64,000 bases of DNA from Octopus vulgaris (lineage: Eukaryota): NCBI GenBank assembly GCA_951406725.2, contig OX597818.1, forward strand, positions 20,584,001-20,648,000. The letters are read 5' to 3'. The notes under the pieces are model-generated. The model searched no databases and was not told where the DNA came from. It saw nothing but the letters and a program-made list of their open reading frames with translations. The position numbers and the translations under genes were made by a program. Positions 1,218 to 41,539 of the stretch are shown in pieces. The number at the start of each line of letters is the position of its first letter. Positions within the stretch are counted from its first letter, which is position 1.

Positions 1218-2208
1218 TACTGCAGCATGGTGTGTTTCTATTTTTATTGTTATTCAGGTTTGTGTGTTGGCTTGAGGCCCCGTTTCTGTTTGTGCGTCGG
1301 GTCCCTGGAAGATGAGTGAAGGGACAGTCACTCAGTAGACATGTTCTCTCACGTTGGGAATACCGGCAGATTTTGGGACTCCGAGTTGTGTGTGTTTTGA
1401 ATTTCGATTTACTATTTGGTGGTGTTGATGTTATTGTGGGATGAGTGCTTTGGCCTTGGCCGGTAGTGCGTCTAGTGCCGGGTAGATGCGTGAAGATGCA
1501 GTCACTATTTGTGCAGAGTCTCTGGCGCAGTGAATAGCGGCATATTTGGGGATTTCTTGTTTGTGCCGTGGGGGGCGCATTCTGCTTCCTATGTTTCTTT
1601 AAGTTTTTGTTACTGCAGTAGTATTGAGGTGGTGATGTGGGGGAAGAGGGCAGTGGTTTCTTATTTGGTTTTCTGTTGGTATTTTTGGTGATAGAAGACG
1701 ATGGTGGCAGCGGTGGTGATGATGATGATAATAATTGTGGTGGTTGCTGTGAGAGCGGTGAAAAGATACTGGCATTTAGCGAATCATCTAGTAAGCTAGA
1801 GTTGAGGAGTGGCTGTTGTTGTTGTTGTTGCTGTGGCTGTTGTTGTTGTGCTTGACCGATGTTAGGGTCAGCCATTGTGCTGGGAACCAGGAGTGGCTCA
1901 TTCTGTTGTTGTTGTTGTTGTTGTGGCTGCTGATTTTCTAGCTATTGTTGTTCTTGAACTGTGAAAATATGTAGAAGCTTTTCATAATGGCCTCTTATCA
2001 GTTTGAAAGATACTTCGATATGTTTCAACTTGCTACGAATCTGTTTGACGGATCGTGTGTTGACCACTTGTGATGTTTTTTCGGCAATCTCATTCAAACA
2101 CAAGACATTTAGATTTTCTGTTTGGGAAAGAGAGAACCATGTGTTTATTAAAACATCAATTTCGTTATCAGACCAATTTCGTCTGTTGCAGGCCTGCAAG
2201 TTAGTCAT
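1090..2208 (-). pseudogene. LINE ORF1: Myb/SANT-like domain, poly-Q/S/P linker and two CCCH zinc fingers; one in-frame TAG at 1942-1944
   Basis: ATG at 2208 ([24 protein letters not shown]...[13 protein letters not shown]) is in frame with ORF 1090..1875 through a TAG inside a CAA/CAG run. The CCCH repeats are CRYSLRQRLCTNSDCIFTH and CRYSQRERTCLLSDCPFTH. Confidence 0.75.
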
Positions 2209-2362
2209 GTTTGTTTTTCTTTTGTTTGTTTTCCTTTTGATTTTTGAAAATATATATATTCTTTCTTGGGAGTTAAAGAAGTGTATATATATATAAATGT
2301 TCTCTCTTAAGGGTGTGAGTTTTTGATTATTTGGTTGTTTGAGGATATTAGAAGAAAAACAG

Positions 2363-34169: not shown

Positions 34170-36504
34170 TTCTCATGAGACCCAACCGTCCAGATGGTAT
34201 TACTGCAGATGGTCATGGAGACGATGTTGCTAATGAAGTGCAACTTGAAAAGAAGATAGAGATGAAGCTGATGATGCTGATCCACCATAAACTACTGAAT
34301 AACATAACTCTAATATTAATTTGAAAGACAGTGGGATGTGGCCTGATAAGCTTTATCACGGTAACGGTATTCGGGAAATCCTTGTGCAACAAGGATCGAA
34401 GGGTGTGCATAATATTGACTGTGAATTCAAAGAAATTGTACGCCCAGGACAAATGACAAAACTGAAAGAGAAGACTAGAAGACGGTCAAGAAACTGGTTT
34501 TTTAGAACTTTACAAAACGGAGAAAAAATCTTCAGAACTTGGATGACATACTCTCCATCGAAATAAGCCGTGTTTTGTTTTTGTTGTAAGCTATTTTCAA
34601 GTGAAAACTCAAAGTTTTGCTCAGTTGATGGTTTCAAATCTTGATGGAAGTTGATACAAGATCATGAATCTAGCCTTGCGCATGAGAATGCATTTACTCA
34701 GTGGAAAGAGCGAGAAATTCGCCTTTCCAAAGGCAATGTAATAGACAAATAACAACAAACTCTTGTTGAAAATGAAACAAAGAAATGGACATAATTATGT
34801 TTCGTGTTAAGCAAAACCTAACTTTACGAGGCCACAGAGAAGACATTCGAGTTGAGAAGGCAAATGAAAATAAAGGAAATATTCTAGAGCTTCATCAACT
34901 GATTGGAAAATTCGACCCAGTGCTACGTGAACATTTGGTGAAAGTAAAAATCGATAAGTTTACAACTTCCTATCTCTCACCAAAAATTCAGAATGAATTT
35001 GTTAACGTCCTGGGAGATCAAGTGAGAATCAAAGTTATCGATGAAGTGTAACAGAGTGAATACTATTGCATTATTTTTGATAGTACTCCAGACATTTCTC
35101 ATATTGATCAAATTTCTCAGGTGCCACGTTATGTTAAAATAGGTGAAAAAGAAGTGAAAGTAGAAGAATCCTTTCTTCGTTTTATTGAGATAAAAGGCAA
35201 AAATACTGAGCAAATTACATCAACGATTCTGAAACAATTAGAAATGGACGACATTAACATTCAAGACTGTCGTGGACAAACATTTGTTAATGTGGCAATA
35301 ATGGCAGGTCATCGAGCCGGTGTTCAAGCGCACATCACAGAAGTTAATCCAAAGATTGTATTTGTGCCATGCTCCGATTACTCTCTGAATTTAGCAGCTA
35401 TGCATGCAGCTTCAGCGGATGCTGATTCAATTACAGTTTTAGCACATTGAACCGTTTACTTTCATTCTTCTCAGCCACAACTCACCGATGGGATATCTTG
35501 ATTGAGATAACTGGTGCAGCTTTCAAACGGGCTGGGGAAACGAGATGGAATAGTCGAGCAGATGCAGTAAAAGCTGTACATATAAACTTAAAATTCACGA
35601 AAATCATTGTTGTGCTAGAACGGTTGATGGAAGATGCAGAAAACACAACTTCGAGATCTGATGCAGGTTTAATTCTGTCATTTTCTTTTTTGTCGTTTCT
35701 TAGCCTTTGGAGAGATATACTTCCTGAAATTAATGACACTCAAAAGTACCTCCAAACAAAAGGTCTAGAGTTGCAACAATGTGCCATTAAACTATCAGCG
35801 TTGAAAACTTCTCTACTTGTAAGCAGAGACAAAACAGTAGATGACGCGTTGGCCTATTTAACCGAAATTTGTTCTGAAATGGGAATCAGCACAGAGCGTC
35901 GAATTCGCAAAAAGAAAAGAATGAGTTATGAAGAAAGTATCGATGCCGCCCTCAGCTACGACGCTGAGCTAAGGAAGAGAAATGTTATCAGTGATAGATA
36001 GACTGGTTGAAGAAATAACCTCTAGATTGGAAAGACTTCACGATATTGCAAAGAAATACACCTTTCTTACACCGTTCAATTTGTTAGATAAAGAGTGTAA
36101 TTGTGATGGAGATGCTTTTGATGAGAATATTAAAAGAGAAGACTTTCTGATTGAAAGGGCAAGACTGCAAAATTATTTGGCAGCTGCTGACGCTGAAGAC
36201 ATGGAAGGGCCTTTGCAAGTTCTTCAGTTTATTCAGAAATATAATCTTATTGATTCATTGCCAAATATTGTAATATTGTAATATTTTTAAGGACTTCTTA
36301 AATCGTGCCATTACTGTTGCTAGCTGCGAACGGTCCTTTTCTAAACTAAAGCTTATCAAGAACCACCTCAGGTCAACAATAATTCAAACAAGGTTGACTG
36401 ATTTGGCAATACTATCCATAGAGCGCGACCTTGCGGATAAAATTAATTTTGATGAAGTCGTTCAAGATTTCACGAAGAGTAAGGCACGTAAAATAAATTT
36501 ATAA
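34170..36504 (+). pseudogene. Decayed hAT transposase (ZMYM1-like, DUF4371 plus C-terminal dimerization domain)
   Basis: LTLRGHRE, GNILELHQLIGKFDPVLREHL, YLSPKIQNEF, DSTPDISHIDQ, DCRGQ, ETRWNSR and SCERSFSKLKLIKNHLRST; many stops and frameshifts. Confidence 0.92.
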
Positions 36505-38779: not shown

Positions 38780-38994
38780 GGAGGCGCAATGGCCTAGTGG
38801 TTAGGGCAGCGGACTTGCGGTGGGAGGATCGCGGTTTCGATTCCCAGACCAGGCGTTGTGTGTGTTTATTGAGCAAAAAAAACACCTAAAAGCTCCACGA
38901 GGCTCCGGCAGGAGGTGGTGATCCCTGCTGTACTCTTTCACCACTCTAAAGGCGGTGCTCCAGCATGGCCGCAGTCAAATGACTGAAACAAGTA

Positions 38995-39083: not shown

Positions 39084-39443
39084 GGCGCGTGACTGTTAAG
39101 TAGTTTGCTTCCCAACTCCATGGTCCTAGGTTCAGTTGCCCTGTGTTGCACCTTGCGCAAGTGTGTTGCATTACCACCCTCAGCACGAGAGATTTGGTGC
39201 ACTGAAACCAAAGGAAGTCCGTAGTATAAACATACATACATGCCTGCGCGCGCGTTTGTTCCTTACCACCGATTAATAGCTGTTGCTGTGTTAACATCCC
39301 TGTAACCTAGCGTTTCGGCAAAAGAAATCGATGCAATTATTACCAGGCTTACAAAAATAAATGCTGTGGTCGTTTCGTTACACTAAAATTCTTCAAGGCG
39401 ATACCCCAGTATTGCCGCAGTCTAATGACTGAAACAAGTAAAA
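39083..39443 (+). mobile_element. Old SINE family A copy
   Basis: Diverged head, body and tail. Confidence 0.7.
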
Positions 39444-40146: not shown

Positions 40147-40482
40147 AAGATCCCAGCAATATCATCACGCTTCAGGACCAGCCACTGCAACACCCTGGGT
40201 TTCAAGGGCCCACAGCTTTTTAATATTCTCCCAAAGAGTCTGAGGAACTTGCACAAAGTAGATGTAGAGGTTTTTAAATCAAAGCTGGGCCTCTTCCTGT
40301 GGAGAGTTCCTGATGAACCTACCTCACGGCAAGAGGTGCAAATGAGGGTAGCTACATCAAACTCCATTCTTCACCAAGTCCCAAATATTAGAGGAGGCTC
40401 TCAGTAATAACAGTGTAGCACAAAACGGCGGTGCATCAGCATGGCCGCAGCTCTGAGCTGAAACTAAAAAATGAAAAAAAAA
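40147..40482 (+). mobile_element. 3' end of an APE-type LINE with a SINE-A-like tail
   Basis: GPQLFNILPKSLRNL...FKSKL..FL.RVPDEP...SNSILHQV (stop 40405-40407), then GGCGGTGCATCAGCATGGCCGCAGCTCTGAGCTGAAACTAAAAA. Confidence 0.88.
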
Positions 40483-40486
40483 GCAG

Positions 40487-40612
<126 letters not shown>

Positions 40613-40618
40613 TTATAT

Positions 40619-40732
<114 letters not shown>

Positions 40733-40785
40733 CGGAGATGTACTCGCATAAAAGTAATTTGATCTGAGATCGTGTGCTGAAACGA

Positions 40786-41078
40786 AAACAATTGCAGCGT
40801 GGGAGGTGTTTATAAGCCATTTAAGAAACACACAAAAGCCGTTCGATTCACTCCAACATTTAAGTTTAATTTGTCAAAATATTTTCGTCGCTAAAATCCG
40901 CGACCTGTTCACTGACAAAGTCCGTGCTGAGATGCAGCACGGACTTTGTCAGTGAACAGGTCGCGGATTTTAGCGACGAAAATATTTTGACAAATTAAAC
41001 TTAAATGTTGGAGTGAATCGAACGGCTTTTGTGTGTTTCTTAAATGGCTTATAAACACCTCCCACGCTGCAATTGTTT
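40786..41078. repeat. Palindrome with 144-bp arms (40786-40929 and 40935-41078) and a 5-nt spacer; Penelope-like foldback
   Basis: Arms read as exact reverse complements; flanked by (TA)n. Confidence 0.93.
40945..40994 (+). ncRNA. Minimal type I hammerhead, G3-C8 core variant (mirror copy at 40870-40919 on the minus strand)
   Basis: TTTGTCA GTGAACA G GTCGC-GGATTTTA-GCGAC GAAA ATAT TT TGACAAA: 7-bp stem I, 5-bp stem II and palindromic stem III. Confidence 0.75.
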
Positions 41079-41539
41079 ATATATATATACATATACATAT
41101 ATATATTTGTATATATATATATATGAGGCATATATATATTTATATGCATATATATAAAAGACTACGACCATGCTGGAGCACCGCCTTGAAGGATTGTAGT
41201 CGAGCATATCGACCCTAGTTCAAATGTGTGTGTGTGGTTGAGTGCATGTATGCATGTATATATATGCAGGAATGTATATGCGTATCTATGTGTGTACGTA
41301 TGTATGTATGTATGTATGTATTTATGTTTGTATGTATGTATGTATGTATGTATGTATGTATGTATGTATGTATGTATGTATGGATATAGATTGCTAGATT
41401 GATTAAACATAATTGTGAAGCACCAGAGAGAGAAAAAAATATTCAATAGAAAATCAGACGAAGACAAGAGAGAAGCAGAAAAGGCAGACGAGCGTGAGAG
41501 AAAGACAGAGTGAGAAATTGAAAGAGAGGCTGAAGCGGG

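Follow-up and report, generated by a model that had tools for sequence, protein, structure and literature searches.

A perfect palindrome in the Octopus vulgaris genome: probable head-to-head terminal repeats of a high-copy Penelope-like element with a G3-C8 hammerhead motif

The palindrome and its parts

The window analyzed here is a stretch of 64,000 nucleotides of Octopus vulgaris DNA (contig OX597818.1, positions 20,584,001 to 20,648,000). It contains, as the initial annotation had described, a palindrome at 40786..41078 with two matching arms of 144 nt each (40786-40929 and 40935-41078). The arms are complementary over their whole length (100%) and separated by the spacer AGATG. The coordinates of the palindrome thus held, but the unit to which it belongs is larger, as the minus-strand arm extends a further 55 nt (40785-40731). 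Both ends adjoin (TA)n, and the unit is asymmetric, with a tail on the left arm only. Its parts are the following.

40530..40730, no strand: (TA)n target microsatellite forming the left flank (the right flank starts at 41079); any target-site duplication would be hidden inside it
40731..40929, minus strand: long arm, the full pLTR (about 200 nt) of a Penelope-like element, with head, hammerhead, ORF start and tail; 99% to 39 other full-length copies, and found at the end of long copies with RT and GIY-YIG
40731..40785, minus strand: 55-nt tail, on one arm only and ending in (TA)n, in keeping with the long/short arm pattern of 24/25 sampled palindromes
40731..40820, minus strand: first ~30 codons of the element ORF, whose ATG is pLTR position 110; they carry a frameshift here and resemble the N terminus of the sister-family ORF
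40870..40919, minus strand: mirror hammerhead motif (reverse complement of the plus-strand arm), predicted cut after 40877
40929..40934, plus strand: head-to-head junction G-AGATG, in which AGATG is the element head; an identical junction is listed at other loci
40930..41078, plus strand: short arm, by arm comparison an inverted, tail-less pLTR copy running from the AGATG head to position 144 and ending at (TA)n
40945..40994, plus strand: minimal type I hammerhead motif with a G3-C8 pair and a predicted cut after 40987 (UUU), from sequence, fold and covariation

We interpret the palindrome as, very probably, two head-to-head terminal repeats of ~200 nt from a high-copy Penelope-like retroelement (PLE) lodged in (TA)n, likely the product of a single insertion event and likely functionless. 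Its youth, first proposed from the matching arms, was confirmed by the recurrence of the 144-nt arm, letter for letter, in all 29 of the 29 best other loci. By sequence match the arms equal the youngest subfamily of the element. One private change, in the tail of the 40731..40929 arm, has a single occurrence genome-wide.

Other repeats surround the palindrome. A short interspersed repeat with a GGCGGTGC.CCAGCATGG motif flanks it at 38948-38974, 39394-39420, 40424-40450 and 41150-41220. Further away, on the minus strand of the window, lies a LINE-type fragment (123-1941) with an APE endonuclease domain (Pfam Exo_endo_phos_2, E 9.9e-15) and an ORF with a Cys/His motif upstream, and next to it (1945-2307, minus strand) a Myb/SANT-like DNA-binding domain (E 6.6e-6, just under the cut-off) that is probably derived from a DNA transposon. 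Two overlapping frames at 35052-36001 (plus strand) look by eye like a decayed hAT-type transposase; Pfam gave no match there.

Identity of the repeated element

The 199-nt long arm had 1,354 candidates in the genome, and all 40 of the 40 that were scored proved full-length at 99 to 100%. The exact 20-nt hammerhead core had 6,323 genome matches, against 0 for the control. Upstream of pLTR copies we found ORFs encoding a YVDD RT motif, then C-x3-C-x2-C and then GIY-YIG. The longest of these (1,025 aa, locus L130) is followed by ~1 kb of UTR and then by this pLTR. Pfam assigned GIY-YIG to the element ORF (E 1.8e-5, above the cut-off), and fold comparison of the element model with I-TevI gave a Z of 10.3 and an rmsd of 2.4 with 88 aligned positions. 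The model was built on 72 homologues and reached a pLDDT of 85.5 (a single-sequence fold, 32); residues C395, C399, C402, C421, H464 and H469 are invariant across the 72 homologous sequences. The evidence for an RT was weaker than that for the endonuclease. RVT_1 was recognized by Pfam in only 5 of the 72 homologues. Pfam found no RT in the element's own ORF, and three partial ORFs gave no Pfam match at all. Structural RT matches of the element model were weak, Foldseek had no match at E<=0.001, a PDB sequence search gave nothing significant, and telomerase RT was absent among the matches listed in both fold searches.

Two defining traits of EN+ PLEs were found in the element, namely, a single ORF with RT plus, at its C terminus, a GIY-YIG endonuclease and an inverted 5'-truncated copy with a tail at one end only. 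Because the CX2-5CxxC linker and the CCHH residues are invariant, we assign the element to the Neptune/Nematis type (Craig et al. 2021, PMC8557442), with which it shares the C-terminal GIY-YIG with that linker and a hammerhead in the pLTR. It also resembles the EN+ PLEs of that paper, where inverted 5'-truncated copies, one-end tails and microsatellite targets are described for PLEs, in having the inverted 5'-truncated copy at the 5' end, the tail at one end and microsatellite targets. The one feature favoring Neptune over Nematis is the (TA)n bias discussed in the same source (PMC8557442). Unlike those elements as described there, the octopus element has a tail of ~55 nt (theirs, 30 to 40) and a G3-C8 core, and most of its copies are bare pLTR pieces of 140 to 205 nt with a fixed head.

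A further trait of EN+ PLEs is a pLTR that arises from partial tandem duplication and contains the ORF start. Among the 12 longest-ORF loci fetched, we saw no tandem copy of the palindrome's family leading from an upstream pLTR into the ORF. The ORF start of the family lies within the pLTR. In a sister family, 55% identical, the classical partial tandem is present, and the ORF begins shortly downstream of the hammerhead; in both families the repeat includes the first ~30 codons, and its last letters before (TA)n are CGTA. A role for the pLTR at the head of the transcript is suggested, on sequence grounds, by the sister family and by the ORF start inside the pLTR. The sister-family homologue is labeled Octopus vulgaris by its source and matches this genome at 100%. 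The sister family itself (L119:2263-6198, L118-L129) has many intact ORFs of ~1,312 aa that lie in partial tandems, as well as a long insert rich in Asn; the hammerhead of this family is C3-G8 but has C at position 9 and a nonpalindromic helix III (AGAACU).

Animal non-LTR retrozymes (bioRxiv 10.64898/2026.07.22.740005) are likewise short noncoding repeats with type I hammerheads and are related to PLE pLTRs, but they are described there as head-to-tail tandem arrays, unlike the octopus copies. We rejected an assignment to this group, as 0 of 60 sampled copies had another pLTR in direct orientation in the 5 kb upstream.

Arm ends, heads and the origin of inverted copies

The frequency of palindromic copies was assessed in the first 60 loci listed for the core 20-mer, from which 7 duplicates with the same junction and flank were dropped (leaving 53). 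An inverted arm lay within 80 nt in 25 of the 53 copies; one further palindrome (L153) fell outside the count of the 80-nt filter. Eight head-to-head pairs with both cores exact were present among the first 100 core matches, which extrapolates to ~500 loci. A junction pattern had 311 matches versus 7 for controls, a number that is inflated, given that 5 of 15 examined loci had no family match. Most copies consist of the bare pLTR piece, and the element body was found upstream in 8 of 53 copies, the remainder starting near AGATG. Since head-to-head pairs are routine insertion products of the PLE, there is no need to invoke a function for the palindrome itself. It is ordinary retroelement debris, a common insertion by-product and not a special locus. 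One palindromic insertion was encountered seven times, with the same junction and flank, among the 60 sampled loci (L152, L154, L188, L189, L192, L193 and L196), which shows that it was amplified as part of a larger repeat.

The arm ends were bimodal, at ~140 and ~200. Within the sampled palindromes, 24 of 25 combined one long with one short arm, and none had two long or two short arms. The two-armed loci of the junction-selected set (n = 8) comprised six long plus short, one long plus other and one short plus short. Long head-to-head elements showed the same ends in 18 of 18 cases, most of them picked by a full-length arm. Solo copies (n = 28) were long in 17 cases, short in 8 and other in 3. 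PLE hammerhead pairs on opposite strands, 100 to 700 bp apart, were reported in 2014 (PMC4209133); we did not find the long-plus-short rule reported in the literature covered. The inverted arms of six loci (L148, L169, L170, L177, L178 and L184) are 5' truncated at pLTR ~71-93, which may mark another hot spot of truncation, located on the downstream side of the ribozyme cut.

We then considered the heads of the copies. A purine preceded AGATG in 1,202 heads (R-AGATG) and a templated pyrimidine in 1,322. The extra base was G in 87 of the first 100 R-AGATG heads. No base was common further upstream of this G in 30 loci, where it also follows pure (TA)n, and in about half of the 30 it could have been borrowed from the inverted arm. 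By analogy to L1, the extra G may be a copied cap at the transcription start. The junction G of the palindrome, which is shared with the other arm and occupies the extra-G site of many copies, is likely such a copied cap. The long copies have a splice-acceptor-like sequence before AGATG (in L130, a branch-point-like CTAAC ~25 nt upstream of the pLTR, a pyrimidine tract and an AG directly before the head), and the head might therefore mark a splice junction in place of a start site. PLE introns in D. virilis end beside helix I (PMC4209133; PMC2377424). A short first exon shared upstream of AGATG was not seen in 30 loci, and we set this candidate aside.

The base 5' of the ribozyme cut was other than U in 118 matches versus 7,970, and ~16 of 30 non-U matches read as true junctions at the cut. 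Because copies rarely begin at this point, the templates appear to be mostly uncleaved, and the template is likely uncleaved RNA.

In the insertion route that we propose, a capped element RNA would start at AGAUG and run through the hammerhead into the ORF, while the element endonuclease would nick both (TA)n strands. Internal initiation of reverse transcription would take place at ~140 and at ~200, with one of these sites for each DNA end. Both cDNAs would extend as far as the cap, whose copy would be the extra G, and would then be linked by their heads. The bimodal ends at ~140 and ~200 fit the two internal RT start sites and two-strand nicking described for the Poseidon element PAc of Anolis (Frangieh et al. 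2024, PMC11167929). In PAc, too, two RT start sites in the ORF start bound the tail, targets are AT rich, both strands are nicked and extended, and insertion does not need hammerhead cleavage (PMC11167929). Unlike the octopus element, PAc belongs to the Penelope/Poseidon clade and has a canonical C3-G8 core, G3-C8 being an engineered rescue there; a further difference is that the octopus ORF ATG lies 3' of the ribozyme.

The second arm might instead arise by fold-back, with the tail-end cDNA snapping back and copying itself, after which an endonuclease would resolve the product through a nick near CAATTG (~140). We regard this as a serious possibility, if short of an even chance. Fold-back would explain the strict long-plus-short rule, and the tail of EN+ PLEs has itself been attributed to endonuclease-mediated resolution (PMC8557442); however, solo copies also end at ~140 (8/28), as two RT start sites predict (PMC11167929). 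The stem II loop agrees between the two arms in 36 of 38 rows (85% is expected by chance, and at least two loci are counted twice), and rare loop variants occur on both arms in L104 and L167, as self-copying would produce. Palindrome L019, in contrast, joins arms of two subfamily types, and many junctions retain heads on both arms plus nonpalindromic filler, which is difficult to reconcile with fold-back.

Two-ended priming on capped, uncleaved RNA, with a different fixed site for each target DNA end, taken together with an active natural G3-C8 hammerhead in which U17 avoids the G3-C17 trap, is a tentative reading that we hold to be somewhat unlikely as a whole. If it is true, the thousands of short head-to-head copies would record in the genome the way in which inverted PLE structures arise. 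The simple rule followed by the short young copies (long plus short arms, extra-G heads and few starts at the cut) makes the question of PLE inverted insertion testable.

The hammerhead motif and its swapped core pair

The hammerhead layout first read on the plus strand was recovered in full, with stem I formed by UUUGUCA (40945-51) and UGACAAA (40988-94) over 7 bp and the core GUGAACA at 40952-58. One extra G (40959) is followed by stem II (GUCGC/GCGAC, 40960-64/40973-77, 5 bp), GAA, AAUAUU and U17 at 40987, after which the predicted cut falls. The AAUAUU assigned to stem III is present, but it makes merely 2 bp around a 2-nt loop and is a palindromic, dimer-type helix III. The sequence has the type I core N3UGAN-N8A ... 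GAA-N15.1, with G3-C8, A15.1-U16.1 and U17. When the 1.2-kb region was shuffled 2,000 times, the hammerhead descriptor matched 0 of the shuffles, which places the motif beyond chance. Rfam at gathering thresholds, with the hammerhead model included, had no match in the window; minimal hammerhead variants need relaxed descriptors (PMC4209133).

A relaxed descriptor, loosened after these sequences had been viewed, matched five of seven related 3' regions (the palindrome's family, the sister family and five metagenome contigs, three of which match) and, for each of them, 0 of 2,000 shuffles. Across the five related motifs the 3:8 pair is G-C, C-G, U-A, C-G and C-G, and the stems are compensated. 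This covariation implies that the hammerhead fold is under selection and that G3-C8 is a natural swap, and it upholds the initial annotation in seeing a hammerhead with an atypical G3-C8 pair. The UUU site, which had been called atypical as well, is not so, since U17 is usual in the clade (N17 is U in 4/5 related motifs). Judged from sequence comparison, the palindrome's family is fixed for G3-C8, a compensatory swap of natural origin. We rejected a canonical C3-G8 master inside this family, as a C3-G8 version of the core was absent among the 18 matches changed at both positions. The three metagenome motifs, all 3' of an ORF, have variants of their own: U3-A8 with C9 (L262), a swapped U15.1-A16.1 (L263), and A17 with G-U at 10.1-11.1 (L265). 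L262 and L265 end in (TA)n.

Natural hammerheads with U3-A8 have been reported (PMC3088659; PMC4209133), and in the literature covered G3-C8 appears only as an engineered, partly active rescue mutant (PMC11167929; PMC8495972). G3-C8 performs better without C17 (PMC3884650), which suggests that U17 may permit the swap. In minimal PLE hammerheads (Cervera & de la Pena 2014, PMC4209133), the 3:8 pair is given as C-G or U-A, whereas that of the octopus is G-C; the octopus motif also differs in its 7-bp helix I and 5-bp helix II. A natural G3-C8 core was not found in the literature covered, which stops short of Lunse et al. (PMC5785218) and of supplements, so its absence from print is not established. 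The locus is unusual in one respect only, the natural swap of a core pair in its predicted ribozyme, through which the family offers a natural test of a swapped hammerhead 3:8 tertiary pair. The significance of the family is modest, and what interest is left attaches to its natural G3-C8 core and to the rules for arms and heads.

Metazoan PLE hammerheads are weak and work as dimers (PMC4209133; PMC6765202), and we predict that the element's own hammerhead is weak and dimer or protein dependent. The G3-C8/UUU motif could even be a catalytically dead relic that is passively carried, which we think doubtful. The C3G/G8C change restores activity merely in part, and hammerhead mutants left in vitro insertion unaffected (PMC11167929); metazoan PLE hammerheads cleave poorly (PMC4209133), and <1% of the octopus copies start at the ribozyme cut. 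A dead relic is nevertheless at odds with a 3:8 pair that is Watson-Crick in 5/5 related motifs with compensated stems, which argues for selection on the fold, and with the preservation of core and stems while loop II varies between older and younger subfamilies.

In a single arm, the pair probabilities of stems I and II are 0.70 to 1.00; in the palindrome, the same stems fall to 0.000, with a hairpin of -263.6 kcal/mol. The suggestion that the long hairpin competes with ribozyme folding was therefore well founded, and the fold model predicts that the ribozyme would be fully blocked by the 144-bp hairpin in a palindrome transcript. A functional RNA device at the locus, either bidirectional ribozymes under antisense-hairpin control or a Dicer/ADAR substrate, is improbable. 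If transcribed, the perfect hairpin of 144 bp (-263.6 kcal/mol) would be a dsRNA substrate, and cephalopods edit repeats heavily. The Dicer or ADAR idea is plausible in itself, though it gained no support here. However, similar junctions number hundreds to thousands, the arms are identical to the youngest subfamily, the ribozyme stems are lost in the hairpin, and the ORF listing of the window, which is not a gene prediction, has no evident protein-coding host exon. No RNA run was listed among the sequencing runs that contain the sequence. The public contigs, which the repeat leaves heavily fragmented, showed one A>G site, which is present too in runs guessed to be DNA.

Perfect inverted repeats can arise as read artefacts, and none of the public contigs listed spans the whole stretch, but an assembly or long-read fold-back artefact is highly improbable given the family-wide asymmetry (in 24/25 cases the two ends differ, at ~140 and ~200, and fall on sites specific to the element, which an artefact would not yield), the existence of diverged old palindromes, and the bridging of one head-to-head junction of the family by a public contig whose run is guessed to be DNA.
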